From Cyanobacteria bacterium P01_D01_bin.156 (GTDB lineage: Bacteria; Cyanobacteriota; Cyanobacteriia; Phormidesmidales; Phormidesmidaceae): a DNA stretch of 64,000 nucleotides. Positions within the stretch are counted from its first letter, which is position 1, and the number at the start of each line of letters is the position of its first letter. The notes beneath the pieces were generated by a model, which was not told the DNA's origin, did no database searches, and was given only the letters and a program-made list of their open reading frames with translations. The stretch is from assembly GCA_039024555.1 (NCBI GenBank), contig JBCCQQ010000029.1:1-64000 (forward strand). Direction: 5' to 3'. A program made the position numbers and the translations under genes. Positions 2,367 to 19,152 of the stretch are shown piece after piece.

Positions 2367-3734
2367 CTACCAAAACCTGATGGGAATAAGCTTACTGATC
2401 TCTCTGTAAAGACGTTTATGTAGTGGAATCCATTTCGAAAAAATTTTAGCATAACCGCTTGAACCTGGTCTTAGCTCTTCGTCTTTGTTCTCGATAGAAA
2501 TCTCAACTGCGGCAATACGATTTTGTTGAGTTTCATCAGTTTCTATTCTATAAGAAGAGATTTCTTCGACGCGTCCCTCATGAACTTCCTGTTTTGACTG
2601 CTGCACTCTAACCCTGATAGGTGCTCCTAAGTTTACGTATTCAAAATCGTCCTCTTTAACTTCTACTTTGGCAGTTAGTTCCTGCAGGTTAACAACCTTC
2701 AGTATGATTGTATTCGGCCCTATTTCTTGGCCTAATGCAAGATCCAGATCTTCGCTTAACACTCTGCCAGAGAGAGTCGAATAAACGGTTAGTGAAGTTT
2801 GTTGAGTCTTAAGACTTTCAAGCCTTTCTGTCAGTACCTGAATCATCTCTTCATAAGCTCTAATATTAGCATTTGCCTCAGCAATTTTCAAAGCTGACTG
2901 TTGTGCTGCTGTTTGGTATTCGGCGTTGAAAGTTTGATCTTCCATACTTTCAAGTAGTTGTCGGTTTGTCAGTTTGATTTCTTCACCAACAACGATTAGT
3001 TCTTTTTCAGTTTCTTGATAGGCGCTCTCAGCGTCGCGCACTACTTTTTCGGCCATGGCTCCGGCCTCATAGAGTGTCCGGTAGTTATCGATGTCCAATT
3101 TTAATTCTCCAAGTCGTTCCTGCAAACGGCTGGCTCTTACTTCCAGGGCCTTTAGTTCCGGAGGAGGAGAGCTGGTTTTGAGTTGAGTAACGCGGTTCTG
3201 TAAACGATTCGCTTGAGTTTGGGTAGATTGAGCAAGAATTGCGGCCTCACTCAACTTAGTTTCTAATTCCACTTGTTGGACTTGTAATCTTTCTAATGCA
3301 GACTGGGCCTGGGTTAATTTTTCCTCAGTTTCAGTGATTTCACGTTCGAGTTCCAGATCGTTGAATTTAACCAAGGACTGTCCTGGAGAGACTGTATCTC
3401 CAGTATTAACATAGATTTCCTGAACGACTGCTCCTCTAGGAGCATAAACGGCTTGTCGTTGTCCTTCAGTCGATTCTAGGGTGACTTCTCCTCCGACCCA
3501 GTAAGGTGTGGGAATAAAGGCGGCAGCAGCTAATCCTGAGACAATCAATCCTCGCCTCAACCAGACTCTATGGGATATGGGGGGTTCCAAGAAGTTATTC
3601 TCAGATGGAGTAGCTTGGCCTGAACTCATCTTAGCGGTAGCACCCTCTTCAGGAGTTTTTGGGAGGGGAGTGTGATGCTTGGGCATGATGATGCGCAGAG
3701 GTTTTTTAGGGGCTGGATTGGGATTTGCAGTCAT
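2367..3734 (-). CDS. HlyD-family membrane fusion / periplasmic adaptor protein
   Basis: N-terminal hydrophobic segment, lipoyl half-motifs (VYAPRGAVVQEIYVNTGDTVSPGQSLV; VYSTLSGRV), long coiled coil and C-terminal LRPGSSGYAKI. Start taken at ATG 3734, overlapping the end of the M50 gene. Confidence 0.88.
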   Translation of the reverse strand: MTANPNPAPKKPLRIIMPKHHTPLPKTPEEGATAKMSSGQATPSENNFLEPPISHRVWLRRGLIVSGLAAAAFIPTPYWVGGEVTLESTEGQRQAVYAPRGAVVQEIYVNTGDTVSPGQSLVKFNDLELEREITETEEKLTQAQSALERLQVQQVELETKLSEAAILAQSTQTQANRLQNRVTQLKTSSPPPELKALEVRASRLQERLGELKLDIDNYRTLYEAGAMAEKVVRDAESAYQETEKELIVVGEEIKLTNRQLLESMEDQTFNAEYQTAAQQSALKIAEANANIRAYEEMIQVLTERLESLKTQQTSLTVYSTLSGRVLSEDLDLALGQEIGPNTIILKVVNLQELTAKVEVKEDDFEYVNLGAPIRVRVQQSKQEVHEGRVEEISSYRIETDETQQNRIAAVEISIENKDEELRPGSSGYAKIFSKWIPLHKRLYREISKLIPIRFW

Positions 3735-4902
3735 GGAGCTTAGTAGGGGCAGTGTAATACAACAACCAGAGTACAGATAGAACGATTGTGAGATAGGGTA
3801 CATGGATGAAAATCCAGATACCAAAGCTAAATAGGAATTTACCAAAAATTAAAATGAGATAGATCAAGCTCAGAGGTGCATAGGCCAACAAAATCCAGAA
3901 ATCCTGACCGGATTCCAGGGGTGAACGACCACCGAGGAGTCTTTGATACAGGAGAAAGGAACGACTGCGCAGGTTGTTGATACCGGTAATAGCAACAGCA
4001 ATGTAATAACCATCGAATCGGACCAAAGGATTGAGATTGAGTGCTACCGTAAAGAGTGCAGCCACCATGAGTAAATAACTACTGGTATGCAGCCAGGTAT
4101 TTTCAGCCGATGTGAACCACAACCAGAAGGCTGCTGCTCCAATGATAAGTTGACAGGCTACACCTGCGACTACAACCCAAAAGCGCTGTTGTCTTTTGAT
4201 CAAGCAATAGGCATCGGTTGTATTGGTATAAGCAGCCGGAAACAAGCACATAAAAATTAGGCCAATCTCAGGAACAATACCACCGTAGTGCTTGAGGGTA
4301 AAGGCATGGCCGAGTTCATGGATTGATACGACTGCAACGGACAGAAGAATAAAGGGAATTAACAGATTCCCTCCCTGGGCTGCAACGAGCTGTTGGCCGA
4401 AGTAAGTGATTGCTGCTCGATGGTGGAGAGCTAATACTGTTGTGTAGGTCAGAAAAATTCCGAGGGTGACGGCAACTGGACGAGTCCAAATCCAGTGCAA
4501 TTTATCAATATGCTGTGAGAGCCACTGATCAGGATTGATGAGTTTGCGTCTGAAATATAAAAGTTGAAGTGGCGTGAATTTTCGTTTGGGCGGTTTAGGA
4601 GGGCTGCTCCCCTCTAACATGCCGGTCAGACTTAAGAGTCTCAGCAAATGTTGCAGCTCTTGGGGAGAGACATCGTAGGCTCTGATAACTCCATGAGGAG
4701 CATGTTGACTCAGGGCTTCAATGACTTGCTTGTCGGGAGAACTGACTTGTAAGTAAGTCACGTCTTGAGTATTGCGCAGTAACCAGTAGCCGTCGGGATG
4801 CTCAATCCACTGAACGACATCTTTAAGAGCAAAGTTCACAGTGGGTTTTGAATTTTGGTGAAATGAGGTAGGCACAGTCAAACTTGGCTCCTGAACTCGC
4901 AA
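3706..4902 (-). CDS. M50 (site-2) intramembrane zinc metalloprotease with N-terminal PqqD/RRE-like domain
   Basis: HELGH and NLNPLVRFDGYY motifs with several TM helices. N-terminal YWLLRNTQDVTYLQVSSPDKQVIEAL...LQHLLRLLSLTGML is wHTH-like. TTG start. Confidence 0.88.
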   Translation of the reverse strand: MRVQEPSLTVPTSFHQNSKPTVNFALKDVVQWIEHPDGYWLLRNTQDVTYLQVSSPDKQVIEALSQHAPHGVIRAYDVSPQELQHLLRLLSLTGMLEGSSPPKPPKRKFTPLQLLYFRRKLINPDQWLSQHIDKLHWIWTRPVAVTLGIFLTYTTVLALHHRAAITYFGQQLVAAQGGNLLIPFILLSVAVVSIHELGHAFTLKHYGGIVPEIGLIFMCLFPAAYTNTTDAYCLIKRQQRFWVVVAGVACQLIIGAAAFWLWFTSAENTWLHTSSYLLMVAALFTVALNLNPLVRFDGYYIAVAITGINNLRSRSFLLYQRLLGGRSPLESGQDFWILLAYAPLSLIYLILIFGKFLFSFGIWIFIHVPYLTIVLSVLWLLYYTAPTKLHDCKSQSSP

Positions 4903-4925
4903 ATTTAGTTAAGCTGCTAATTCAT

Positions 4926-5939
4926 CTAACGGTGTAATGGATTTTGGAAGATGGGCTTGCCCTGAGAATCGCATAACGCTTTGCCATCAGCATCTCGTTC
5001 GGCATCGCAAAAGAGATAGTTACCCTCATCATCTTGTTTAAGATGCAGTTTACCGTGAAGGTATTGATAGGCAGGTGTCTGAAACTGAGGATTGCCTTCG
5101 TGCATAAAAATGTTGCCGTTTTCGTCTTTCAGCACTGGGCAGACGACTAAATTGCCCTGCTTATCGAAGACGAAACTTTGGGTCTGAGGATCGCGTACTG
5201 GGGTGGGATACAGAGGTAATTGAGGTTTTTCCGCAGTGGATTCTACAGTCAGAGGTTGAAGAAATACAGGCTCGCCTTGGGGATTTTTGACTAGGAGACC
5301 TGTTTTCGGATCTCGTAAGGGAAGGGAACGAGGAACTGGCGGTTTAAGGTCTGCAATGTCGGGAAGGGGAGGATGGAGGTTGGGCAGATCGATGCCTTTG
5401 GGAAGGTCGTAGTGGCGGGTATATTGAACAGCAGTGCGACTAAAACCAAGTTTTTCCAGAAGAGCGTGAAGACCGCTGAGGTGAGCACCGACCATGAGGT
5501 CAATGTCGCTGACTTTCATGGAGTCGGCATGTTGTAGTGCCGCGTCAACCAGCAGCTTGATGGCTTCTAGGGTACGGTGCTCTGGCTCTACGTAGAAGGC
5601 AAGTACAGAGCCAATACGGCGGTATTGATAGGGATGGAGATCGCGGTGTCTAGCTCTGAAGTCCTGAGATAAGTTAGACGATGGAGATTCGTCATAGTAG
5701 TTGCCAATCAGAAAGCCTACTGCTTTATGGTCAGTTACTAACGAAGAATCCTGAGTTTTTAATAGCCAACAAAAAGATAAGGGTTTCGAAATTTGGTGAG
5801 CAGCATACTTCTCAAAATCGAATCCATCTTTGACGGCCACAGAAGGATTTTCTTGAGTTCTCTCTAAGACAAAATTTTTCCAATGATCGGCGATGATCTT
5901 GCTGTCTTCAGGAAAGGCACGAGTGACTGAGAAATTCAT
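4926..5939 (-). CDS. GNAT-family acyltransferase with C-terminal beta-hairpin repeats
   Basis: AVGFLIG, IGSVLAFYVEPEHR and ALLEKLGF are GNAT motifs. The C-terminus has repeated RDPKTG/RDPQTQ/DKQGN/KDENGN/DDEGN/DADGK/DSQGK hairpins. Confidence 0.75.
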   Translation of the reverse strand: MNFSVTRAFPEDSKIIADHWKNFVLERTQENPSVAVKDGFDFEKYAAHQISKPLSFCWLLKTQDSSLVTDHKAVGFLIGNYYDESPSSNLSQDFRARHRDLHPYQYRRIGSVLAFYVEPEHRTLEAIKLLVDAALQHADSMKVSDIDLMVGAHLSGLHALLEKLGFSRTAVQYTRHYDLPKGIDLPNLHPPLPDIADLKPPVPRSLPLRDPKTGLLVKNPQGEPVFLQPLTVESTAEKPQLPLYPTPVRDPQTQSFVFDKQGNLVVCPVLKDENGNIFMHEGNPQFQTPAYQYLHGKLHLKQDDEGNYLFCDAERDADGKALCDSQGKPIFQNPLHR

Positions 5940-6012
5940 GGCTTGTTCTTCGAAACTCCATCAAAGTATTTGGTTTGAAGAGGGGCAATTAGAAATATGC
6001 CGAATAAGACAT

Positions 6013-9000
6013 CTAATCTATGTCGCCATTATCTTTAATCTCCTTATAGGCAATACCTTTTTGATCTAGCCAAGCTTTCACATTGTTTGGTATTGATGAT
6101 GAATGGATTTCAAATTTTTTGTTGAATCTTTCTGCTGTCGCTGAATGTTGCGATGCTTGAGACTTGAAATCATTAAAGAGTTTTGGATTTTCTCCTATTC
6201 TCTTTATGCGTTCAGGATGCTTTGCGTCCCACCATACATTACCTTTAGCTCCATCAAATTCACGAGCTTTGAGAGAACCAGGTATGCTGACTTCAAATCC
6301 ATACTCCCCAGTTACCTTAAACTTCAAATCGGCAATTTCTGACAACTCTGCCTTGATCTCTGTAGGGCGATCAGATTTCCTGTAAAATCCCACATATTCT
6401 TCAAATCCTTTACCTGATAATCTGTCAAAGCTTATAGGAAGATTTTTATCTGCTTCTATTAAGCTTTTAGTTGCAGGAGACTGGAAAAATTTCTTTAGTG
6501 AAGCATTCTGAATTCTCTCGAAGAGAGACTTTACAGGCTTGCTGGTTACTAGTTGTTTTGCAACACCACCTACTCCAGGCGCTAACCCAATGAGAGAACC
6601 CGCTGCATTTACCCAGTTCAAAGGCTCATCCATTGAACTAGGATCGCTTTGAAATTTGTCATAGATGATCTTTAAATCGCGTATATCTGTTGCTCCAGTA
6701 GGATCAAGTATGTCAATCATGGTTCCTAGAAAGACTTGACCAGATGATGGATTTCTGTTGAATTCGCCAAGTAAAGCCCCTGCAAGGAATTCCATTTCTT
6801 CGCTTTTTGGAGGCTTAATACCTGTTATGTCTTCTCCTAGAAACTCACTCACTCCGCTCAGTGCCTGCCGAAACTTGGCACCTGCTAGGCCTGCAGTAAT
6901 AACATCATCTTCAAACTTATAGTTACCTGGAGTGAGTTTAAAGTCACCGAAATCAGGATCCTCTAGTGCTCCGGCTATTGGGTCTTGAGGATTATTGATA
7001 GAGTCACCAGGAAATAGTGGATCCTCACCAGACTCATTGTCTTGTTCAGGAATTTCGTTAGTAGCAATGAAGATAGCAGCTATTTTTTTCTTAGTATCTA
7101 CAGAAATATCCTGGAACACTTCATTAGCCTTTTCAGGTTCCATTTCTGCAAGAACACTAATCTGTTCATTGGGATCATCCAGTTGTTCGATCACAGTAGC
7201 AGCAACATCATCTGGTAAATCTTCTACAGTGTCGCTTAAGGCTAATAGCCGATCTTCTCTAGGCAGATCTTCCACTGAAGCTAAAACTTCCTCTGCACGT
7301 TTTTCTAAAGTTTCTTGCCTGCTGCTGTCATCTTCAGCATCTTGGTTGTCTTGTGAATCCTCTTGTGGTGTGACTGCATCTTTGTCCGCAATTTCATCGA
7401 CAGCCGTTCTGATTTCTTCATCCCATGTGCCTAACAGAGAATCGATACCTGACAGCCATGCATTAATACCGCCAGTGCTGATTGCACCTGCCAGTGCTAG
7501 CCCAGTATTGCCCGTTTTATCGACGTATTTCAGAGCAGTATCTACTGCATCATTAAAGAAGCTGCTAAAGCTTGTACTAATACTAATGGCCCCGTTGAAT
7601 AACCCCTCAACTGCAGCAAACCAATCTCCATCTTTGATCGCATCGATACCGTCATAAATCATTTGGGGAGCTTTTTCTAAGCCATTCAGCACTGATTGCA
7701 TCACCTTTGAGCCCGTAGAGGAAAGCTGAGAGAAGACATTCTGTAGCCCTTGAGTTGCCGCACCCGCCGCACCACCAAGAATCTGCAAGGCTCCCAACAC
7801 ACTTTCGCCAGTCTTAATCGAGCGGATACCATTAAAGGCTCCTGATGTGGCTGCTTGTAATCCCTGCAGGCTACGAGTAGCGATGGATCCTATAAGATTT
7901 CCTGCGCCAGCAGTAACAGCACTTACACCAGCCATAACTGCCCCAAAGGCAGCCCCAGCCCAGTCACCATTAATAGCGGACTGGATGGCATTAATCCCTG
8001 CGCCCGCTGCAATTAAACCGATGCCAACCACCTGTAAACCGGGGACAAAACTGACGACGGTACCAACTAAGCTGACGACCGTGGAAAGCGTGCTAAGGAC
8101 CTTACTCCAAACTGCTTTTTTCCGCTGTTTACGGATCTCCTCTCGCCTGGCGATTACTTGCTCGATAGCTTCCCTCGCAAGTCTTGCCCGCTCTTCGGCG
8201 ATTGCCACTTGGCCCTCTGCATAATAAATACCTGCTAGGACTGCCGAATACTCTGCATCTAGCTCATCCAGCAGAACCCTTATTTCCTCATTCTTTTCTG
8301 CCTCTTCAAAGAATGTCTTGACGGCAGCTTCCAGATTCGTTTGGGCCTGTTGTAAAAGCTGTCCCTCTTTCTGAGTTTCGGCATCAATTTCAGCGAGTTC
8401 TGCCTTATAGCGATTTATTTGTTCAACTATGCCGTCAGCAGCGGCAATGATATTCGCTTGAATATTGGCGGCTTCTTCACCTTGTAAAGCTAAGTGGATA
8501 TCTCCTTTCACCTCAATCAAGAGAGCTTTCAGGTCATCAGGAAGATCCGGCTCTTCAGTTTCCAAAACATCTAGTTGCCCCAGCAAGCTTGCCATCTGAG
8601 ACTGCATCTGGACAGGGGATTCGACGACATCCAAGTCGGTCATCCCCAGGCTGCCTCGAATTTCGTTGAGCGCTTGTTGTAGGTCTGCCTCTGCCTGAAC
8701 CTGTTCCAGTTGTTCTATTTGCGCCAGAACAACTTGGCGTTTACGCTCAATCGCCTGTCTTTCGCGGGCGAGCCAGTTTTCGAGGCTCTGGTCAATACCA
8801 GCCTCCCGCTGCTTGGCAATTTCGATCTCTAACTGGGCCTGAGCCAGATTGAGCTGCTCTAGATTAGCGACCTGGATAAAGGTTTGCTCAGCTTCTACTC
8901 GGACTTCTTCAATAACTTTGATGCGAATCTCGATGAGTTCCAGGTCGCGGTTCTTGTGCTCAATCTCTTCCTGAGATTGAGCGATTCGGTTGTTAATCTT

Positions 9001-12000
9001 GTCGAGTTCTTGCTGGGCAATTTGGGTATCTCGTTGCAGAATTTCAATATTTGCTTCTGCTTGTTCACGCTTATTTCTTAATTTGATAGCCTGAAAATTT
9101 TTCTGTATATCCAATACTTCCAGGCGTCTCCATTCTTGATAATACTGATCCGCTAATTCTTGATACTCAGGCTTAGCGGTCTTGTTATCACTCGCCAGAT
9201 CATTAAACTGTCTATAGGCAACTTCGGCAGCAGAGGCACTATCGATTGCTCTAATTCGATCCAGCCATATTTTCCGCTCGTTTTCAGCTAAATCTTTTGC
9301 CTGCTGTAGCAAGTTAGTAATTTCAAACTCTATCGTATTAATTTCACGCTGTTTTTCAGTCGCTTGCAACGTCAGGTCTACTTGTTCTTCCGTGGCTTCT
9401 CGCAATTCGCGCAGTGTTTGTTGCTGCAGCCGTGCTTCCTGAATGTGGCGGTCATTTTTAGCCAGCAAGTCTTCTCTCAGGCTCTTCAGTGGTTGAGTCA
9501 GTGCCTGACTACTAGCTTCGGCTTGCTCGGCTAAGCGCTGAGCTTCTGCAAGCGCTTCACGGGTAGCCAGCAACTCGGCTTCAAGGATGCTGGTGTCTTG
9601 ATCAGGATTAAGAATATAGGCTTGCAGCAGTTTGGTTTCAGCCGCAACCACGGCATCGCTCGCAGCAACGAGTTCTCGTCTTTGTGCCAGTGAGGCTTGC
9701 TGAGCTTCGGTAACATTTAGTTTGCTCACCGCTAGAGCCAGAGATTGCTGCAATTGTGAAACTTTGGTCTGAAGCTCAGTCAATTCACTAGGAGAGGTGG
9801 CCAGAGAAATCTCGTCTTGAGTCGCAGCCAATGCTTCCTCAAGACGTTGTTTGATGGTGATTGCCTGCTGTAACTCAGTGTTTATCGAGATACTTTGTCC
9901 CTCGATCCAGCGCTCAATTTCAGCCAACATACTGCGGTATTGCAGCGCTTGGCGATCAACCTGGCTCCGTTGCTCAACGACTTGTGTAGCAGCTTGGCCA
10001 AATGCTTGGGATTGTTCGAGATACGTCTCCCAGGCTTGCTCGACAGAAGCTTGAACCGATAATGCTTCCTGCTGCGCCTCAAGGGCTTGTTTCTCCAAAG
10101 TTTCCAGCAAACTTTGGATCTCTTCTTCAGATGACAACTCTAACTCTGTCTTCCTCTTGTTTCGAATATTCTTTAAACGATCTGCAACATCATCAATCTT
10201 CTCACTAGCCCGCCGTGCTGCATCATGAGCCTCTGACCATTGGCCTACAATATCTACAAATTTTGCATAAGTACTTTCTGCAGATTTGAAGGCAAACCTT
10301 AAACTCTCAACTTGGTAAGAATGGCTCTTGACTTCATTGGACCAATATTTCCAGGTGTCCCAATGAGGATCAGGGATAGGATGCACTTCTGTCGTCCAAG
10401 TTATCAATCCGAATGGGCCCTTGACTGGAACCCTTTTATTCCAGAAACCATCAACAACATCTGGCGAACTATCATCTGGCCATCCATGTTGGACTCTATA
10501 ATTTCGACTTGCATGCCAACTAATTCTTTCATTTTCTCTTGCTTTATTGAGAGCAAAGATCTCCGCATCCAGATCTATTTTTATAGAGCCAAGTCGTTCT
10601 TCAGTATCCTTAAGTGTGTTTTCGAAGGATGGTAGAAGCTTCGCAATTGAATTTTTGACATTATCGATCCTTAAATTTAGGTCTTGTGTGTAATAGCTTA
10701 ACTCACTCTCCCAATTTGCTAAGGAATCTTGATAATGACTCTTTTTTAAGGAAAGTTGAATCAAGGCAGCCCGATTTCTTTTTATTTCTTGATTGTTTTT
10801 TATGTTTCGCGCCTTAATAATGGACTGAATTGAGAATAAATCCCTTAATCCGTCACGAGTGGTTTTATAGTCTCCAAAAGGACCCGACAAATCACTTTGA
10901 ATAGTATTGACTAAACTATCTACAGAATCTGACTGCTGAGATTGAGCCTCAATTAAATCTTGAGTGATTTGGTAACTCGCCTGTAAGTTTGTAGTCCACT
11001 TTGTTACTGCATCAACTAAATCATCAGCCACAGAATCATGAAGCTGTGCATAGGACTGAATGGACTTCTCACCCAGAGCTGCATCGGCTTTATCCAATGT
11101 GACTAGCTCAGGCCGGGGAGTCAGGAGCTGCTTTTCTAAATCACGACGTTCTTGTAAAAATGCAAGAGTGCTCCAGGCATTATTTAGTAATCCCCTTAGG
11201 TCTTCTGCAACAGAAATAAACGAACTTTGCCAGATATCTACATTACTGATGTGTTCTATTAAGAAGTTAAGGTCATTAACACTTTCCTCCAGACCGTTCA
11301 TTTGTAGAGTCTCAAGGATTTTTAGTAAGTTATTCTTGTGAGATTCAATAGATTGATATTGTTGTTGAAGCTCAGCCAAGAAATCTAACACTATTGTTTC
11401 AACTTCAGCATAGAAATATTCTGGATTGGATTCAGAAGCAGCTAGGCCAAACGCAATTAGTTTTTGAATTGATTCAGCACGAGACTGCATATCATCGTCA
11501 AAGTCTGCCCACTTAGCAGATGATTCAATAATTCCAGCCTCTAGTTCAGCCAGTTGACTTTCAAGTTGGTCTGAGATTTCAGTCAGATTCTTGTCAAAAT
11601 CGATTGAAGTATCACTATCTGGAATTTCCTGTCCCAGATCTTCAAGCTCTTGCCTAATTCGTGCAAGTTGGGACTCCACATCTTGTCTTTGGCTCTCTAA
11701 ATCATCAATGTCTTCAGTTAATGACTGAATTTGAGCCCAAAGCTTATTTCTTTGATCGGCAATCAGAGAAGCTTGCTGATAGTTTTCACGCTCCGCAAGT
11801 GCCTCAGATTCAGAATAAAAGCCTTCACTCCAGGTATTGGCTTTATGCTCAAGGGAAAGGTTGTAATAGTAAGCCTGTTCCTCTTTCAGGAGTTCATCCT
11901 GTAGGAAAAGTTGATCCAGTAATGAGTTCTGCTCTGTCAGGTTGTTCTGGATATTAGTCAACTGAGTCTGAGCCGAGACGTAATCTCTTCTGAGAACAGT

Positions 12001-15000
12001 ACTTTCTAGAACTTCCAGGGTTTCCAGAACTTCTCCTGTCAAGCCTTCCTGCTCTTGTTCTACATTTTCCCACTCTTGAGCCTGCTCCTGATACTGTTGA
12101 GCCTCACCCTCAAGCTGAACAAGGAATGCTTCCCTGTGGTTTAGCTTTTCAGTGAAACCTTCTATCTGTTTAAGATAGCGTTCGGTTAGTTCAATTGATT
12201 GATACTTTTCTTGTAAAGCCTTTTCAGTATTGATTATGGCTTCCTGCAGGCTTTGATGTTCGTCTGGATGCCAGTATTCAATCTCAGGATCAATATCTTT
12301 CAGGAGTGGAATAGCCTGATTAAGCTGCGTATGCTCATCCCAGAGTTTTTCCAAAAACTGCTTGGCCTCGGTATAAGCCAAATCGGCCATTGTTTGATGC
12401 TCAGCAAGTATCTCTCGGTTACCCGAGTAAGCTTGTTGACCTTCAAGAACTTGGTTGAGATACTCGACATACTGCTGAGCAGGCAAATCATCCGAGCTAT
12501 CAGGCCACTGATACCCCTCTAATTGGTAAATAAATTTGTTAATGGCCTGTAGCTGTTCCTGACTCAGAAAAGCCTCGCTACTGCTGGATTGCTGATAGGT
12601 TTGAATGTCTTCAATTAGCGCCTCGATAGTATCAGTGGATAGTCCCGAAGCGCTAATAGTGCTGAGATTCGCGTGACCAGAAATTAGTTCTTTTTGGAGT
12701 TTTTCCTGTCGGGTTACATTATCTGGATCAACCTGTTCTAAACGTTGGTTGAGATATTCAATTTGTCCTTCAATCGCTTCAATTCGCTCTCGATAGGGAA
12801 TCGCAAATCCCGCAATTTCTAGTAACTCCCGTAAGCGTGCTTGAGCATCATCTTGAGCGAGATGAATTGCTTTCAATTCATTAGGGATACCTCGAGCCTG
12901 AGCATTAATAAGTCCGATCTCTTCCTCAGCAGAATTTATCTTGCTATTGATCTCATCTATTTGATGCTGCTTTTGGCTGACTTTAAGATTTATTAATTCA
13001 AGATCCTGTGCCCTCTCAAGTTCACTTAGATTCAACCAATCATCAATTGCTAAACGCTCTAATTCATGAGAATCTAGCTCTCTCTTTATTCCTAAACCTT
13101 TCGGTGAATCCCATCTATAATCACCCAGTCTTTGTTGTGTATTAATAATTAAAGTTTCTAATTCGGTAATTCTTTCTATATTCCTTTCTCTTTTTTTTGC
13201 ATCAGCCTCAAAAGGATTGGGTGTTTGTCGAAATTCTTTATCTTCAATATATTTCTCTAAATCATCTATTAAGGTTTGCTTATGGGTCTCAAGTACAAAC
13301 CTCTTGTTTAACTTAACTTGAGTTTCCTGCTCTAAAAGAGCCAGGTTATTCTCCAGCTGCTGCTCTTGAATAGCAAGGCCCTCAACCTCGGTCTTGAGCT
13401 CCTGGTATTCATTCAAGACTTCAAAAGCATACTGCCCTACTGAAAAGTCTCTGGTTTCGTCAACCCCAAGAAGCTGCTGCCATAGATCATCATTCGCCTT
13501 ATCAGAAACCTCCAGTAGGGGTGAGCTTACATCCTGAGGATCTGAGGCGGGTCTCGCCAGAGTTGTAACTCTGCCTTCGCCACTAAAGGAATCTACTGGA
13601 GCAGCGTTAGGAACGGTGAGCTCAGTGCCTTCCGTCTGCTGAGCCAAGATAATAGCCTCAGCAACATCCAATAAACCGGCACCCGTCGCCGGATCCCAAC
13701 CCGGTTCAGCCAAATCATCCGCCGCTTTTAGCAGGATCTCCTTCACCTGCTGGTAATTCAGTTCTGGATTCGCCTTCCATAAGAGTGAGACCGCCGCCGT
13801 CACATAGGCGGTTGCTTTTGAGGTGCCGACAAACGCATTCGGATCCGTTTCCCACTCTCCCCCAGGGGCGACTAGAGACAGTCCCTCACCTTGAGCTGAG
13901 TAATCGGCTTTCTCTTGCCAGCGGTCAACTGCACCCACCACCAAGATGTTGTCAAATTTCTGGGCTACAGCTCCTAAGGCTGACATTAAGTCGCCTGTAT
14001 TGCCTGCTGCAGTCACTAACAAAACATTGTTTTCCTGAGCATATTGAATGGCCTGCTGCTCAGCAGGGGTCAACTCATACCGAGTCGTTGTATGCTCCAG
14101 GTTATCAAATTGAGCCAGGTCAAGGCCCAGGTTCACGACTGCGTTAGGGGTTTCAGACGAGATCGCCTGATCGACTAATTCTGTAAGTTTCTCCGCCCAG
14201 TCTGCTCCGTCGGTGTATTTGACCGTATAGGCATCATCATCTAGCTGGTGAATGGCATTAAAGGTCTGCAGTGTTTTGCGATCATGGCCCTGTTGCGCAA
14301 ACTCAATGAAGCCAATCAGGGGCAACAAGCCTTGGTAGGGCGGTAGTTCTGCCAGGTCATGCGCCTCGACTAAAAGCTTCTCCCAAGCGGAAGACCCGGC
14401 TTTCTTTAGGGCTTCATACAAAGAATCAGGCAGTCCCAATTCCTGGCCTATCATCTCACTGTGAATAAGTTGATAGGCTGCGTCGACCTGGGGCTGATCA
14501 ATACCTAAAGCCAGCAAGGTATCTGGTTGCACTAAGAACTTGAAGGCTCGAGGCTGCTTTTCGATGAGGCTGTCGAGTGTATCAACCAGATTGGTTAAAC
14601 CTTCAGACGATCCAGCATTAGTATCTTTTGCTAATGTTTCCAAGACTTCTTTAACCTCTATTAACAATTTATCAATTGCCTCAGTGGTTTCAGAGTCGGG
14701 CACATCCAAGATCAGGATAGGACGCTGAATGATGCTTTCACCATTACCGTTGGTTGCTCGAATCGCAATTTGCTCAATGTCGATCTCAGCTGAGGTCGGT
14801 TCTACCAATAGAGTCTGTCCCTCAAGACTGAGATTTAGCTCCGGACTCCCAGCATCAACCACCTCATAAGTCCACTCTCCGCTCTTTGGAAGGGTTACAA
14901 AGAGTTGTTCGATCTCGATTTCTGTTGCTCCGCTTGGATCGAGCATCACGATTAGCTCATCTGGTTCTACGAAGGACTGAGCATATTCGATAATTTCCTG

Positions 15001-15795
15001 GCCAATGACTGTTTCTCGCCAGTCATCATCAGGGTTAATGTATTCGTCTAGGCTCTCCGTTTGACCTCTAGCACCTTCAATCCTGAAAACTAGATCGTTA
15101 TAGTCTTCATCTGAGCCGGTATCGATTCTTAGATCTTCAAATGTAAAGGTATTGCCATCCCCTGTAACATCTAGGAGTTGCTTTACATGAAAGTGATCCT
15201 CGGGATTAGCTGTGGCCATTGAGAACAAAGGGCGTGCTGCTCCTTCAACCTCAGGATTATCCAAGACCTCTTGAAATCTACCGTTAGGTACCAACATGAG
15301 ACCGAAGCGATCCCCTGGCTTCATCTTGACAGGCTTTGGACCAAGGTAATCTCCAGCATTGAAATCGCCTTCATGGTTAAAGCTGCTACTGAATTTAGCT
15401 CCTTCTGAGGGATCAGAGATAACAATATGCCCCAGATCTGTACCACTGCTTACTCGTTGGGCGGCCTCTTGAATAAAGTCAGTTGAGTTGGGATCAAAGG
15501 TATCCATGCCTTCAAGGCTAAAAATTCCTAGCTCGCCTTTGTATCCCCCCCCATCAAATAGAAAGTCAAACTTGACTTCACCATTGCCTGTAACTTGGAA
15601 GATCCCTGACTCAAAAGCTTCAAGACTTTCCGTGATGGGTGGGGCACTTGAGATCGCAGAAAGTAGCCCATCATCATTGAAAGCGACATCAGAATCTTGG
15701 TTTGTTTGTTCCAGGTCAACCAAGCTGCTTAATGTCAGGATTTCTTCAAGGATGAAAGTCTGATGGTTTGGATTGAATGAAGATGAGTCAGTCAT
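6013..15795 (-). CDS. Giant (3260 aa) polymorphic-toxin-like protein: DUF4114-like / S8 subtilase / coiled coils / hydrophobic helices / pre-toxin / REase-fold nuclease
   Basis: FEDLRIDTGSDEDYNDLVF (DUF4114-like). VTAAGN, SLVAPGG, GTSKATAYV and GWDPATGAGLLD (S8). About 1800 aa of heptad-rich helix, then hydrophobic SLVGTVVSFVPGLQVVGIGLIAAGAG. GALLGEFN...DIRD...IGLAPGVG is pre-toxin-like. The tip is REFDG...WWDAK...FEIHS...WLDQKGI. Confidence 0.8.
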   Translation of the reverse strand: MTDSSSFNPNHQTFILEEILTLSSLVDLEQTNQDSDVAFNDDGLLSAISSAPPITESLEAFESGIFQVTGNGEVKFDFLFDGGGYKGELGIFSLEGMDTFDPNSTDFIQEAAQRVSSGTDLGHIVISDPSEGAKFSSSFNHEGDFNAGDYLGPKPVKMKPGDRFGLMLVPNGRFQEVLDNPEVEGAARPLFSMATANPEDHFHVKQLLDVTGDGNTFTFEDLRIDTGSDEDYNDLVFRIEGARGQTESLDEYINPDDDWRETVIGQEIIEYAQSFVEPDELIVMLDPSGATEIEIEQLFVTLPKSGEWTYEVVDAGSPELNLSLEGQTLLVEPTSAEIDIEQIAIRATNGNGESIIQRPILILDVPDSETTEAIDKLLIEVKEVLETLAKDTNAGSSEGLTNLVDTLDSLIEKQPRAFKFLVQPDTLLALGIDQPQVDAAYQLIHSEMIGQELGLPDSLYEALKKAGSSAWEKLLVEAHDLAELPPYQGLLPLIGFIEFAQQGHDRKTLQTFNAIHQLDDDAYTVKYTDGADWAEKLTELVDQAISSETPNAVVNLGLDLAQFDNLEHTTTRYELTPAEQQAIQYAQENNVLLVTAAGNTGDLMSALGAVAQKFDNILVVGAVDRWQEKADYSAQGEGLSLVAPGGEWETDPNAFVGTSKATAYVTAAVSLLWKANPELNYQQVKEILLKAADDLAEPGWDPATGAGLLDVAEAIILAQQTEGTELTVPNAAPVDSFSGEGRVTTLARPASDPQDVSSPLLEVSDKANDDLWQQLLGVDETRDFSVGQYAFEVLNEYQELKTEVEGLAIQEQQLENNLALLEQETQVKLNKRFVLETHKQTLIDDLEKYIEDKEFRQTPNPFEADAKKRERNIERITELETLIINTQQRLGDYRWDSPKGLGIKRELDSHELERLAIDDWLNLSELERAQDLELINLKVSQKQHQIDEINSKINSAEEEIGLINAQARGIPNELKAIHLAQDDAQARLRELLEIAGFAIPYRERIEAIEGQIEYLNQRLEQVDPDNVTRQEKLQKELISGHANLSTISASGLSTDTIEALIEDIQTYQQSSSSEAFLSQEQLQAINKFIYQLEGYQWPDSSDDLPAQQYVEYLNQVLEGQQAYSGNREILAEHQTMADLAYTEAKQFLEKLWDEHTQLNQAIPLLKDIDPEIEYWHPDEHQSLQEAIINTEKALQEKYQSIELTERYLKQIEGFTEKLNHREAFLVQLEGEAQQYQEQAQEWENVEQEQEGLTGEVLETLEVLESTVLRRDYVSAQTQLTNIQNNLTEQNSLLDQLFLQDELLKEEQAYYYNLSLEHKANTWSEGFYSESEALAERENYQQASLIADQRNKLWAQIQSLTEDIDDLESQRQDVESQLARIRQELEDLGQEIPDSDTSIDFDKNLTEISDQLESQLAELEAGIIESSAKWADFDDDMQSRAESIQKLIAFGLAASESNPEYFYAEVETIVLDFLAELQQQYQSIESHKNNLLKILETLQMNGLEESVNDLNFLIEHISNVDIWQSSFISVAEDLRGLLNNAWSTLAFLQERRDLEKQLLTPRPELVTLDKADAALGEKSIQSYAQLHDSVADDLVDAVTKWTTNLQASYQITQDLIEAQSQQSDSVDSLVNTIQSDLSGPFGDYKTTRDGLRDLFSIQSIIKARNIKNNQEIKRNRAALIQLSLKKSHYQDSLANWESELSYYTQDLNLRIDNVKNSIAKLLPSFENTLKDTEERLGSIKIDLDAEIFALNKARENERISWHASRNYRVQHGWPDDSSPDVVDGFWNKRVPVKGPFGLITWTTEVHPIPDPHWDTWKYWSNEVKSHSYQVESLRFAFKSAESTYAKFVDIVGQWSEAHDAARRASEKIDDVADRLKNIRNKRKTELELSSEEEIQSLLETLEKQALEAQQEALSVQASVEQAWETYLEQSQAFGQAATQVVEQRSQVDRQALQYRSMLAEIERWIEGQSISINTELQQAITIKQRLEEALAATQDEISLATSPSELTELQTKVSQLQQSLALAVSKLNVTEAQQASLAQRRELVAASDAVVAAETKLLQAYILNPDQDTSILEAELLATREALAEAQRLAEQAEASSQALTQPLKSLREDLLAKNDRHIQEARLQQQTLRELREATEEQVDLTLQATEKQREINTIEFEITNLLQQAKDLAENERKIWLDRIRAIDSASAAEVAYRQFNDLASDNKTAKPEYQELADQYYQEWRRLEVLDIQKNFQAIKLRNKREQAEANIEILQRDTQIAQQELDKINNRIAQSQEEIEHKNRDLELIEIRIKVIEEVRVEAEQTFIQVANLEQLNLAQAQLEIEIAKQREAGIDQSLENWLARERQAIERKRQVVLAQIEQLEQVQAEADLQQALNEIRGSLGMTDLDVVESPVQMQSQMASLLGQLDVLETEEPDLPDDLKALLIEVKGDIHLALQGEEAANIQANIIAAADGIVEQINRYKAELAEIDAETQKEGQLLQQAQTNLEAAVKTFFEEAEKNEEIRVLLDELDAEYSAVLAGIYYAEGQVAIAEERARLAREAIEQVIARREEIRKQRKKAVWSKVLSTLSTVVSLVGTVVSFVPGLQVVGIGLIAAGAGINAIQSAINGDWAGAAFGAVMAGVSAVTAGAGNLIGSIATRSLQGLQAATSGAFNGIRSIKTGESVLGALQILGGAAGAATQGLQNVFSQLSSTGSKVMQSVLNGLEKAPQMIYDGIDAIKDGDWFAAVEGLFNGAISISTSFSSFFNDAVDTALKYVDKTGNTGLALAGAISTGGINAWLSGIDSLLGTWDEEIRTAVDEIADKDAVTPQEDSQDNQDAEDDSSRQETLEKRAEEVLASVEDLPREDRLLALSDTVEDLPDDVAATVIEQLDDPNEQISVLAEMEPEKANEVFQDISVDTKKKIAAIFIATNEIPEQDNESGEDPLFPGDSINNPQDPIAGALEDPDFGDFKLTPGNYKFEDDVITAGLAGAKFRQALSGVSEFLGEDITGIKPPKSEEMEFLAGALLGEFNRNPSSGQVFLGTMIDILDPTGATDIRDLKIIYDKFQSDPSSMDEPLNWVNAAGSLIGLAPGVGGVAKQLVTSKPVKSLFERIQNASLKKFFQSPATKSLIEADKNLPISFDRLSGKGFEEYVGFYRKSDRPTEIKAELSEIADLKFKVTGEYGFEVSIPGSLKAREFDGAKGNVWWDAKHPERIKRIGENPKLFNDFKSQASQHSATAERFNKKFEIHSSSIPNNVKAWLDQKGIAYKEIKDNGDID

Positions 15796-16563: not shown

Positions 16564-19152
16564 ATGGGTAGAGCAAGCTATGGGCCAGTTGCCCAACGAA
16601 GGACGCTGGAAGTTCTAAAGTTGTTGTTAAAGATTGCGAACTTAGAGGTTGACTTACCCGACCATGTGGCGATCGACTATCGTTGGTCTGATAAAAGTAA
16701 CCGCCTGAGTTCTCTAACTATCAAAACTACCTTATCTGATTTATTGAAGATTGATCAGACTCAGGCTAAGACAACTAAACAGACAACGGAAAGCTTGCGG
16801 ACAGCATTGAAAGCCTTGAGAGACTATTTGGAGATTCTGACTGATCATCGAATCAACCCTCGAGGGACTACGACTTGGTATTTTACTCTGGATTTATGGT
16901 CTCGTTGTACAGAGCTCAATCTGAAACAAGCAGAAAGACTCTGGCAGCAAAAGCGTTCTTCAGAGTCTGTATCTCCTGTTCAAGATTCTTTGTCTATATC
17001 GCATCAAGATGTACCGGCATTGGATCTCTCCTGCTTTTCGAAGATTTTGGAGGATTATGCCCAGTGGTATAGACAGAGTTATGGAGTTATCAAAATTTTG
17101 CCAGGACTTATGCAGAGACCGATCTCCTTAGATGCTGTCTATGTGGATGTCAAAGTTTTAGATCAGCAAAGTAAGCGGCTTCTTTCCCCTAACGCCCTTG
17201 AAACCTTTTATCAAAAGTTCCAGAGCCGCAGTTTATTTGGAAGTGAGTTACTTCGTCGAGACGGACTTGTCGTAGCTCGAGAATGTCCATACCTGATGGT
17301 GTTGGGTTCTCCAGGTATAGGAAAATCTATCTTTCTAAAAAAGCTTGGCTTACACGCTTTTGCAGATAATGACTCTGCCAAGGATAAACAGATTCCTATC
17401 TTGATTGAACTTAATCGATTGGAGCAGTCTCAATTTAATTTGAAAAACATAATTCATCAAGTTTTATTCAAACAGAAACATCCTAATAGTAGAGCTTACG
17501 TAGAACATTATTTGCGCCAGGGAAGTTTTCTTTTGCTTCTAGATGGCTTAGACGAAGTATCTGAAACTCAGCGAGGCATTCTGGTTCAACATGTTCAGGA
17601 ATTTATTGAGAACTTTCCCAAAAATCAAGTTGTTATCTCTTGTCGAACAGCTGCTCACTATTTTAGTTTTACGCAATTTGTAGATGTGGTAGTAGCTGAG
17701 TTTAGTGATGCTCAGGTTCGTTCTTTTTTGGATAATTGGTTTGAGGCACACACCAATTATGCTACTAAACAAGCTGTGTTTCTCTGGGACTTTATCAATC
17801 AGCGAAATAATGCTCCTCTTAAAGAGTTAGCCCGTACTCCCTTGCTGCTGACTTACCTCTGTTTAGTGTTTGAATCAGTTGCAGAGTGTCCAGCCACACG
17901 CAACTTGTTATACGCTCAAGTGTTAAATCTATTTCTAAAAGACTGGGAACAGCAGAAAAATCTTTCTGTGGCCGAGCACCCTCAGTTACCGCTTTATCTC
18001 CAAAAACAGCTACTTTCAGAAATTGCTTATGAAACATTTAAGGCTGAACAATTATTTATTCCTCAAACGTATTTACGACAAAAAGTATTGACATTTCTCA
18101 AAGACCATATATCAGCCAATTCTGATATTGATCCAGATAGTTTTTTGCAGCACCTTGCAACGAGACAAGGGTTACTAGCAGAGCGCTTTCAAGATCGCTG
18201 GTCTTTTTCGCATTTAACCTTGCAGGAATACCTTGTCGCTCAATTTATCATTCATAATGCACAAACTGATTTTTTACTGAATGAGTTTCTGACAAGTCCA
18301 CGTTGGCGAGAAGTGGTGATTTCAACTGCTGAGTCTCTTGACGGAGAGGCCTATAGTTACTTGGTGGCTATTCAAGCTCAGGCTAACAGATTTATCAGTG
18401 AAAATCTGAAATTGAAAAAGATTCTTAGTTGGTCTCAAAACAGTCTTAAAGCTTCATCAAGTTTTGCCTTGACGTTATCCGAACGGGCGAGTTTGATTGC
18501 GGCTTTTAGCGCAATTGCTGCTTCCAGAGCTAGTGACTTTGATATTGATAACTCAGTTGGTTACAAGATCGCCTTTGCTCTGGTGACAGGTTGTGAAAGT
18601 GCTGTCGCGATCGCACAAGAGGGCTCAGCGATATATCAGGCTGCTGTCACTAGCTCTGTAACTATTGCTGCCGCTCGGGCGAGTGCTGCTGATGAAGCAC
18701 GGGCAATCAATATCGACTATGTGATTCGAGGAGCTCAAGACTTAATTGATGATGTTAGTAACGAATCAGGCATTTTACGTGAATATGATCGAGCTCGGAT
18801 TGTTCGCCGAGGCATCGGATTTTCTTCCCAAATCGCGAATATTGCTAAACAAGCACCCTCTAGTTTTTCTGAAATATTGACTGAGTTAGACCGTCAACTA
18901 ACTAACGCTTTGGAGACGGTGCCAGATGAAACAGCCAATGTGCAAACTTGGCGAGAATGGTCAGAGCGCCTGGAGAAAAGTTGGATCCAAGCTTTTAGGT
19001 GCTCGAAGGATTTAATGACCCTGACATTGGCGGAAGCAGAAGCTTTTGAAAAGTATTTATATCTCATTGAGTTACTAATTCACTGTATAGATTCAGCTTG
19101 GCAAGTTCCGGAAAGCAAGCGTCAGACCTTAAAGCAGGGATTGCTAGTCTGA
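16564..19152 (+). CDS. NACHT (STAND) NTPase with N-terminal cyanobacterial helical/HTH domain and C-terminal NACHT-associated helical domain
   Basis: Walker A GSPGIGKS, Walker B LLLLDGLDE, VISCR, TPLLL, SFSHLTLQEYLVA. Confidence 0.9.
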   Translation: MGRASYGPVAQRRTLEVLKLLLKIANLEVDLPDHVAIDYRWSDKSNRLSSLTIKTTLSDLLKIDQTQAKTTKQTTESLRTALKALRDYLEILTDHRINPRGTTTWYFTLDLWSRCTELNLKQAERLWQQKRSSESVSPVQDSLSISHQDVPALDLSCFSKILEDYAQWYRQSYGVIKILPGLMQRPISLDAVYVDVKVLDQQSKRLLSPNALETFYQKFQSRSLFGSELLRRDGLVVARECPYLMVLGSPGIGKSIFLKKLGLHAFADNDSAKDKQIPILIELNRLEQSQFNLKNIIHQVLFKQKHPNSRAYVEHYLRQGSFLLLLDGLDEVSETQRGILVQHVQEFIENFPKNQVVISCRTAAHYFSFTQFVDVVVAEFSDAQVRSFLDNWFEAHTNYATKQAVFLWDFINQRNNAPLKELARTPLLLTYLCLVFESVAECPATRNLLYAQVLNLFLKDWEQQKNLSVAEHPQLPLYLQKQLLSEIAYETFKAEQLFIPQTYLRQKVLTFLKDHISANSDIDPDSFLQHLATRQGLLAERFQDRWSFSHLTLQEYLVAQFIIHNAQTDFLLNEFLTSPRWREVVISTAESLDGEAYSYLVAIQAQANRFISENLKLKKILSWSQNSLKASSSFALTLSERASLIAAFSAIAASRASDFDIDNSVGYKIAFALVTGCESAVAIAQEGSAIYQAAVTSSVTIAAARASAADEARAINIDYVIRGAQDLIDDVSNESGILREYDRARIVRRGIGFSSQIANIAKQAPSSFSEILTELDRQLTNALETVPDETANVQTWREWSERLEKSWIQAFRCSKDLMTLTLAEAEAFEKYLYLIELLIHCIDSAWQVPESKRQTLKQGLLV

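Follow-up and report, generated by a model that had tools for sequence, protein, structure and literature searches.

A giant toxin-like gene lies beside a GNAT gene and an M50-HlyD pair

We analysed a 64,000-nucleotide stretch (the window) at the start of contig JBCCQQ010000029.1 from the 6.6 Mb genome of Cyanobacteria bacterium P01_D01_bin.156, in which four adjacent open reading frames (ORFs) on the minus strand encode a giant toxin-like protein (6013-15795), a GNAT-fold protein (4926-5939), an M50 intramembrane protease (3706-4902) and an HlyD-type adaptor (2367-3845, opening on a TTG codon, with a likelier ATG at 3734 that gives 455 aa). The genes are tightly packed, with 73 nt between giant and GNAT, 23 nt between GNAT and M50, and an overlap of M50 and HlyD, just as an earlier note on this DNA had described, and all four frames are open with their catalytic motifs kept. 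That note had also remarked on the lack of a linked ABC transporter, and we likewise found no ABC-family Pfam match among the 27 window ORFs scanned and ABC motifs in only 3 of 37 M50 loci. Promoter and terminator counts were no higher than chance. The features discussed below are as follows (all on the minus strand; residue numbers are those of the giant).

6013..15795, minus: giant polymorphic toxin precursor (predicted), 3260 aa, 363.5 kDa, pI 4.4
15718..15759, minus: N-terminal tag, residues 13-26, the only tag-bearing ORF in the host genome
15073..15324, minus: DUF4114 domain, residues 158-241 (Pfam E 1.5e-23)
13606..14328, minus: S8 subtilase, about residues 490-730 (Peptidase_S8 E 4.6e-17)
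8146..13488, minus: E/Q-rich, Gly-poor helical shaft, residues ~770-2550 (composition and conserved blocks; putative coiled coil)
7381..8145, minus: conserved delivery region (putative), residues 2551-2805 (44 sequences aligned, hydropathy)
6553..7317, minus: pre-tip module, residues ~2827-3081, common to a relative whose tip differs (L115)
6013..6480, minus: variable tip, predicted restriction-endonuclease-fold nuclease, GC 0.374 against 0.452 in the body
4926..5939, minus: toxin-associated GNAT-fold protein, 337 aa, GNAT domain 1-180 followed by a beta-hairpin repeat tail
3706..4902, minus: M50/site-2 intramembrane zinc protease, 398 aa, HELGH and NLNPLVRFDGY intact
4591..4851, minus: RRE/PqqD-like N-terminal domain of the M50 (HHalign 90%, E 1.6e-6, 80 columns)
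2367..3734, minus: dedicated HlyD-type periplasmic adaptor, Pfam HlyD_D23 and HlyD_3 above cut-off, overlapping the M50 stop

We surveyed 401 genomes of the phylum, using the same set for GNAT, giant body and M50 queries. Across cyanobacteria these gene families are repeatedly found together, but such a run is rare: the complete giant-GNAT-M50-HlyD order in one direction was present in two of the 401 genomes, the host and G246, the latter with cassettes between giant and GNAT, and two genomes of the host's genus had no match to body or M50. The cassette is real but patchily distributed. The earlier note had taken the four genes for a single system; they are instead two separable modules lying side by side, an exporter (M50 and HlyD) that appears to serve a wider class of tagged S8/DUF4114 proteins, and a toxin whose GNAT partner follows the toxin body.

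A short N-terminal tag accompanies the M50 protease

The tag at residues 13-26 of the giant, which the earlier note had overlooked, is likely an export signal. Its family consensus is [QK][TS]FILEPILTPSGLVD, and in the window copy the two Pro of the consensus are replaced by E and L. A profile built from 20 N-terminal segments (with at most 19 candidates scored per genome) matched 24 of the 401 genomes, 23 of them strongly. All 23 strong-tag genomes, 18 of which supplied training sequences and five of which did not, fall within the 28 genomes with a close M50 match (E < 1e-70; 39 genomes have any M50 match), and none is found among the other 373. The host holds tag, M50 and dedicated HlyD in single copy each, and in some genomes 4 to 8 tagged ORFs are present with one M50.

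Searched against 1.84 billion representatives, the same profile retrieved 131 cluster representatives with the tag near the N-terminus (median position 33), preceded by basic and followed by acidic residues. Among the 61 tagged representatives of at least 1000 aa, 59 match the S8 or DUF4114 domain of the window, and two GGxGxD repeats were found in none; other domains of tagged cargo include LGFP, M23, LysM, PA14, Ig-like and NucA. The M50/HlyD pair would serve a broad class of tagged S8/DUF4114 proteins, among them peptidoglycan hydrolases and adhesin-like proteins. A prepilin-type site was considered for the tag and rejected, there being no Gly before the Phe, a Glu at +4 and no hydrophobic helix.

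The M50 protease carries an RRE-like domain and is coupled to HlyD

The M50 protein matches Pfam Peptidase_M50 (E 1.1e-6) and has both sets of zinc ligands, HExxH and NPxxxxDG, in hydrophobic segments, with both motifs conserved. Its best NCBIfam match is the daptide intramembrane protease NF041824, at 148 bits against a cut-off of 300. The N-terminal domain is RRE-like, and probably homologous to the PqqD-type RRE, as judged from the profile comparison listed above, whose target comprised the N-termini of 72 distant fusions, two of them confirmed as PqqD; direct Pfam matches to RRE/PqqD families were weak (4 of 31, E 0.034 or worse). The earlier suggestion of an RRE-bearing M50 is supported, as an RRE-like domain on an intact protease. 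Tandem RREs in the longer M50 homologues find no support here, as the extra N-terminal domain of these proteins aligns poorly with the retained one (HHalign 2%).

The dedicated HlyD scores 52 bits against TIGR01843, below the cut-off of 208. In 47 of the 48 long close M50 homologues, M50 and this HlyD form one fused chain; this points to a physical complex of the two and, with the overlapping genes here, supports the coupling proposed in the earlier note. A large S8/DUF4114 or tag-bearing protein lies within the fetched stretch in 18 of 30 loci around close M50 matches, and in three genomes of one genus HlyD is found apart from M50, directly upstream of a tagged giant.

Two further observations concern these loci. 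One M50 homologue (P0224) has, instead of its C-terminal half, a lipase domain resembling some toxin tips. Small proteins with apparent signal peptides, and with ends that we take to be PEP-CTERM-like, occur beside M50 or giant genes, often without HlyD (L132:4803-5156, L133:12089-12445, L125:7190-7891 and L059-L064).

The GNAT protein follows the toxin body

GNAT matches were found in 17 of the 401 genomes, 13 of them full length or cut by a contig end and four set aside as fragments or weak. The conserved body of the giant matches 14 genomes, 12 of which hold both body and GNAT, whereas only seven of the 14 are among the 28 close-M50 genomes. In a named collection of 71 GNAT loci, some of which may duplicate genomes of the 401-genome sample, a body, S8 or DUF4114 match lies within 10 kb in 46 (27 of the 32 loci with full flanks) and the body itself in 39 (22 of 32), against an M50 in five. 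Because the GNAT tracks the body (12/14) and not the M50 (5/71), it appears to belong to the toxin, with a wider role for the M50. Its position relative to the giant varies, upstream at some loci and downstream at others.

The protein matches Acetyltransf_1 in Pfam (E 2.2e-4), with no NCBIfam match and no HlyC-family match in Pfam or NCBIfam. Its structure model (mean pLDDT 88) has a full GNAT fold followed by the hairpin-repeat tail, and its best fold matches (Z 17.9, rmsd 2.4, 146 aligned) are to acetyltransferases of the ordinary and N-terminal kinds. The usual GNAT motif A pattern is R-x-x-G-x-G/A; here the motif is non-canonical, with an HRxPEAI consensus in 47 homologues and no Gly among the four commonest residues at positions 122-127. 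The RTX-activating acyltransferase ApxC is not among the listed fold matches, with kinship still possible. The earlier note had assigned the GNAT an HlyC-like role: its tie to the toxin stands, and the HlyC-like role is only an analogy, because the modelled fold is that of an ordinary GNAT and no RTX-activating acyltransferase appears among the listed matches. Two main readings of its function are left, acyl-ACP-dependent acylation and a chaperone or guard role. One homologue (P0004) has two tandem GNAT domains before the repeat tail, and several genomes have GNAT fragments containing stops in regions that look mobile (L035, L036, L038 and L039).

The giant combines a conserved body with a variable tip

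The giant is acidic, contains no Cys and has no GGxGxD repeat. Candidate catalytic residues of its S8 domain are E498 (Asp in relatives), H504, N599 and S659; among body-proximal S8 domains, Ser and Asn are present in 8 of 8 and Asp with a nearby His in six, the His being assigned by alignment only. Self-processing is plausible from these residues. The earlier prediction of a self-processing polymorphic toxin of about 360 kDa is right as to size and variable tip, its cleavage being a candidate activity read from the S8 residues. The helical shaft has a weak SMC-like NCBIfam match. Across 44 distinct body segments, the delivery region opens with a basic patch (2551-2560) containing invariant R2551, R2555 and R2558 and conserved Lys, followed by a hydrophobic hairpin (2566-2604), an NGDWxG motif and Gly/Ala-rich helices. 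Its neighbours in the ESM Atlas, the PT-TG and SctE translocators, score below 0.9 and are a lead only, and it has no significant PDB match.

Similarity among relatives of the giant ends near residue 2805. For instance, P0170 shares 55% identity over residues 1-2795, together with the Pro-to-Leu variant of the window tag, and ends in a lipase tip. Among members of the non-RTX group, 26 tips of at least 100 aa fall into 17 clusters. In a scan of 25 tips, 13 had some Pfam match, with M23, amidase, C39, lipase, pesticin and RTX repeats among them. A giant and an RHS partner share one tip at 73% identity, and one related locus (L027) holds an orphan cassette of a CdiA-type RNase with CdiI. The giant is one of a polymorphic family whose body is conserved and whose tip varies.

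The tip in the window is a predicted PD-(D/E)xK nuclease. It contains PD-(D/E)xK-like motifs (E3132, D3180 and D3190-A-K) and scores 0.92 to Tox-REase-3 in the ESM Atlas, where the ten best named matches belong to one clan; it has no Pfam match and no PDB sequence match. Its homologues were found neither among near-length proteins nor on plasmids nor in 300 other genomes of the class, so that it is present in one of 301 class genomes, the host.

Just downstream of the tip, a seven-codon frame (5989-6012) begins at the stop codon of the giant and is possibly the relic of an immunity gene. Among 30 relatives, 12 have no ORF of 60 aa just downstream of the tip, and two have the GNAT as their next gene. 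At four loci (L026, L028, L075 and L121) the giant ends just past the delivery region in a short Cys-containing end and is followed by RHS proteins, an arrangement that suggests a two-chain toxin.

One branch of the family lacks the tag and often has RTX repeats

One branch of the giant family has neither tag nor S8 domain. Pfam RTX repeats are present in 7 of its 12 examined members, two others being cut or broken, and a close M50 was found in none of six sampled genomes (four of them rechecked), which are not six independent tests because the RTX-type branch represents about one event. In a quick tree of the bodies the branch stands on one side (support 73), and RTX-type loci are set apart in the same way in the GNAT tree (support 98); both groupings span several families. 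Body and GNAT identities, taken pairwise, are correlated (rho 0.53 over 29 pairs, reached in 0 of 999 permutations), a figure inflated by kinship. On the S8-type side an M50 is present in 7 of 8 genomes, and the GNAT is kept with the toxin body even where no M50 was found. The exchange of an N-terminal tag for C-terminal RTX repeats within one family lends independent support to the tag as an export signal.

A proposed tag-guided export module and its alternatives

The interpretation that we favour, and lean towards with only modest confidence, is that a polymorphic antibacterial toxin is delivered by a tag-guided module lacking an ABC transporter. The M50 would bind, through its cytoplasmic RRE-like domain, the FILEPILTPS-type tag with which it co-occurs, at the N-terminus of the giant. 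The zinc site of the M50 would then remove the tag, and the chain would pass, N-terminus first, through the M50, a sleeve of the HlyD to which fusions couple it, and a TolC encoded elsewhere; TolC-type matches lie on four other contigs of the host genome. Such an N-terminal signal would leave the C-terminus free for tip exchange. Before export, the GNAT would act on the conserved body of its partner toxin. We incline, tentatively, to the view that it acylates Lys of the basic patch that precedes the hydrophobic hairpin, and favour this over a chaperone or guard role, itself a fair rival that is somewhat doubtful. Outside the cell, S8 would mature the precursor and the helical shaft would reach a neighbouring cell, where the hairpin may enter the membrane and deliver the nuclease as one of the family's many tips.

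A bolder and more doubtful extension holds that RRE-M50 and HlyD form a self-sufficient channel of a new type, which, without a dedicated ATPase, carries proteins of several thousand residues across both membranes and reads a ribosomal-peptide-style N-terminal tag. The toxin family would have switched between this route and type I secretion, and the GNAT would arm the delivery domain and protect the producer, replacing tip-specific immunity genes.

Several observations weigh against the favoured interpretation of a tag-guided export module. The window tag has Leu for a Pro conserved in 128 of 130 sequences, and the tag-positive genomes largely overlap the training set. A detectable tag is present in only 4 of 8 S8-type toxins, and in one S8-type genome (G388) neither tag nor M50 was found; the absence of M50 from the RTX-type branch counts as little more than one event. 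Most M50 relatives carry a further domain before the RRE-like one, which the M50 in the window lacks. A dedicated HlyD is present in 19 of 37 M50 loci and missing from the other 18, and a search of 10 genomes gave no match to it in four. The fold matches listed for the GNAT are acetyl-CoA enzymes. The 73 nt that follow the tip contain the seven-codon frame only and no ORF large enough for an immunity protein. Finally, energy could come from five unlinked C39-domain transporters of the host genome, all on contigs other than that of the four-gene locus.

These transporters also speak for a different route, in which the M50 is only a leader peptidase and receptor and the inner membrane is crossed by way of an unlinked ABC transporter (or Sec) working with this HlyD and TolC. 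The many further HlyD-like genes elsewhere in the genome, a module without an ATPase and a single canonical, full-length SecA in the host fit this route as well, but the M50-HlyD fusions place the adaptor on the protease, ABC motifs are rare at M50 loci (the 3 of 37 noted above) and the tagged cargoes lack RTX repeats, and we consider it unlikely, if the strongest of the competing explanations. We think it quite improbable that the M50 merely frees its cargo into the periplasm or membrane by regulated intramembrane proteolysis, with an optional HlyD and a cell-bound protein. That would suit the roughly half of M50 loci that lack HlyD yet keep tagged cargo, and the many non-toxin cargoes that bind or cut peptidoglycan; it sits poorly with the HlyD that is present and overlapping here, with a DNase tip that would have no target in the periplasm of its producer, and with the RTX repeats of sister toxins.

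Other explanations concern the giant itself. It could be a filament on the cell surface or an exoenzyme for scavenging, with catalytic ends that can be swapped and no delivery as a toxin, or a decaying copy, which we regard as improbable. The missing immunity gene, the many wall-hydrolase or lipase tips, the several relatives that end without a known tip, the drift of the tag and the shortened M50 would fit such a view. Against it stand a nuclease-like tip behind a conserved hydrophobic hairpin, the RHS partners and the orphan cassette of toxin and immunity genes at related loci, four open frames with catalytic motifs kept, and the tag variant shared by P0170. It is very improbable that the contractile injection system (eCIS) encoded from 19.7 kb onward carries the giant as its cargo: a full eCIS locus does begin about 4 kb away, and PVC-type toxins often lack immunity genes according to the part of PMC3482391 covered, but eCIS genes occur in 1 of 142 fetched loci, that one without toxin body, and the giant has no eCIS_core domain.

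Relation to known systems

The closest precedent is the work of Kamneva, Poudel and Ward 2015 (PMC4452313), who, in the parts covered, described loci with M50 and HlyD and no ABC transporter and proposed the M50 as pore and a secondary SecA as motor. Our module shares with these secondary SecA_DEAD loci the joining of M50 to HlyD without an ABC transporter, and distant PqqD-M50-HlyD fusions (about 30% identical) are homologues of the window proteins. It differs in that no secondary SecA was found in six of six genomes tested (the host and 5/5 others, with one full-length SecA each), in having one adaptor and neither GAF-HlyD nor TolC in the locus (no GAF match in the window), and in its tagged cargo, substrates or tags not being mentioned in the parts of PMC4452313 covered; the string 'cyanobacteri' is absent from the main text as covered. 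The earlier note had put the M50 in the place of the ABC transporter; the pore idea is already in print for SecA-linked loci. We found no description of the toxin-GNAT family, of the cyanobacterial tag or of the signal swap in the literature searched, most subscription papers lying outside its coverage. On present evidence, the exporter reads as a SecA-less variant of a predicted export module, and the cargo is a polymorphic toxin-like protein whose family we did not find in the literature searched. Mentions of M50 in PMC4446572 and PMC8277102 proved irrelevant to the system.

With type I secretion the module shares an HlyD-type adaptor, but it has no cognate ABC (HlyB) in the locus, and the giant lacks the C-terminal RTX repeats present in part of the sister branch; it resembles a type I system by architecture and is not a member. 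The TolC-type matches, on other contigs, are possible partners. The LEPRxLL or Planctomycete export-signal giants, as far as covered in PMC8567305 and bioRxiv 10.64898/2026.03.19.712371, are likewise very large exoproteins with a short N-terminal LE-x-x-L motif. The resemblance is by eye only, since NF012209 (LEPR-8K) and PF07595 (Planc_extracel) match none of 20 tags and exceed the cut-off in none of five tag-bearing genomes, and the cargo here carries S8/DUF4114 and toxin tips.

RiPP leader proteases (daptide NF041824, EpeP/YydH) provide the best family match and have an RRE-like domain and M50 in common with our exporter, and the part of PMC10885120 covered describes EpeP as an M50 thought to cleave and export; the substrates here are instead proteins of 1,000-5,000 aa, with HlyD coupling and no RiPP tailoring enzymes. 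The hlyCABD operons and class IV CdiA-CdiC pair an acyltransferase-fold partner with a large toxin bearing a hydrophobic segment, as here. In the parts covered of the respective papers, RTX-activating enzymes are GNAT-like without CoA-binding elements (PMC8339906) and CdiC acylates CdiA, a polymorphic toxin (PMC8510554), whereas the partner here is recognised by Pfam as a GNAT, has a repeat tail and lacks any HlyC-family match, and the tips are variable. Polymorphic toxin systems (Zhang et al. 2012, PMC3482391) and S8-PTS (PMC9424270), in the parts covered, share a conserved N-terminal trafficking part, an S8 processing protease, a variable C-terminal toxin, orphan cassettes and RHS partners; here the S8 lies inside the toxin, with no Sec signal and no adjacent immunity gene. 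The covered text of PMC3482391 contains no occurrence of M50, HlyD or T1SS, and that of PMC9424270 none of cyanobacteria, M50 or HlyD.

Neighbouring genes

The remainder of the window is dominated by a large eCIS locus (19729-63729) with sheath, four gp19 tube genes, CIS_tube, VgrG-like, Pvc16, AAA ATPase and baseplate J genes, three eCIS_core proteins of up to 2375 aa and a LuxR-type regulator. In one other genome (L051:866-10822, G092) an M50 likewise lies at the edge of an injection-system locus. Divergent from the giant, 16564-19152 encodes an EAD4-NACHT-NCH2 protein, with many NACHT paralogues in the genome; on the other side lie Cas6 (729-1874, 381 aa, with a weak sigma-like match at its C-terminus) and a SnoaL-like gene (129-464).

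Significance

For the export route proposed in 2015, our analysis provides a candidate signal of 14 residues and a minimal machine of two genes. We found no tests of M50-pore export in the literature searched, and a genome in which M50, adaptor and tagged cargo occur once each and no second SecA is present makes the question of a protease as secretion channel directly testable. To our knowledge, the interbacterial weapons of mat- and bloom-forming cyanobacteria are little known, and the analysis outlines a toxin family of these organisms, with a GNAT as its dedicated partner and an immunity gene that is often not evident.

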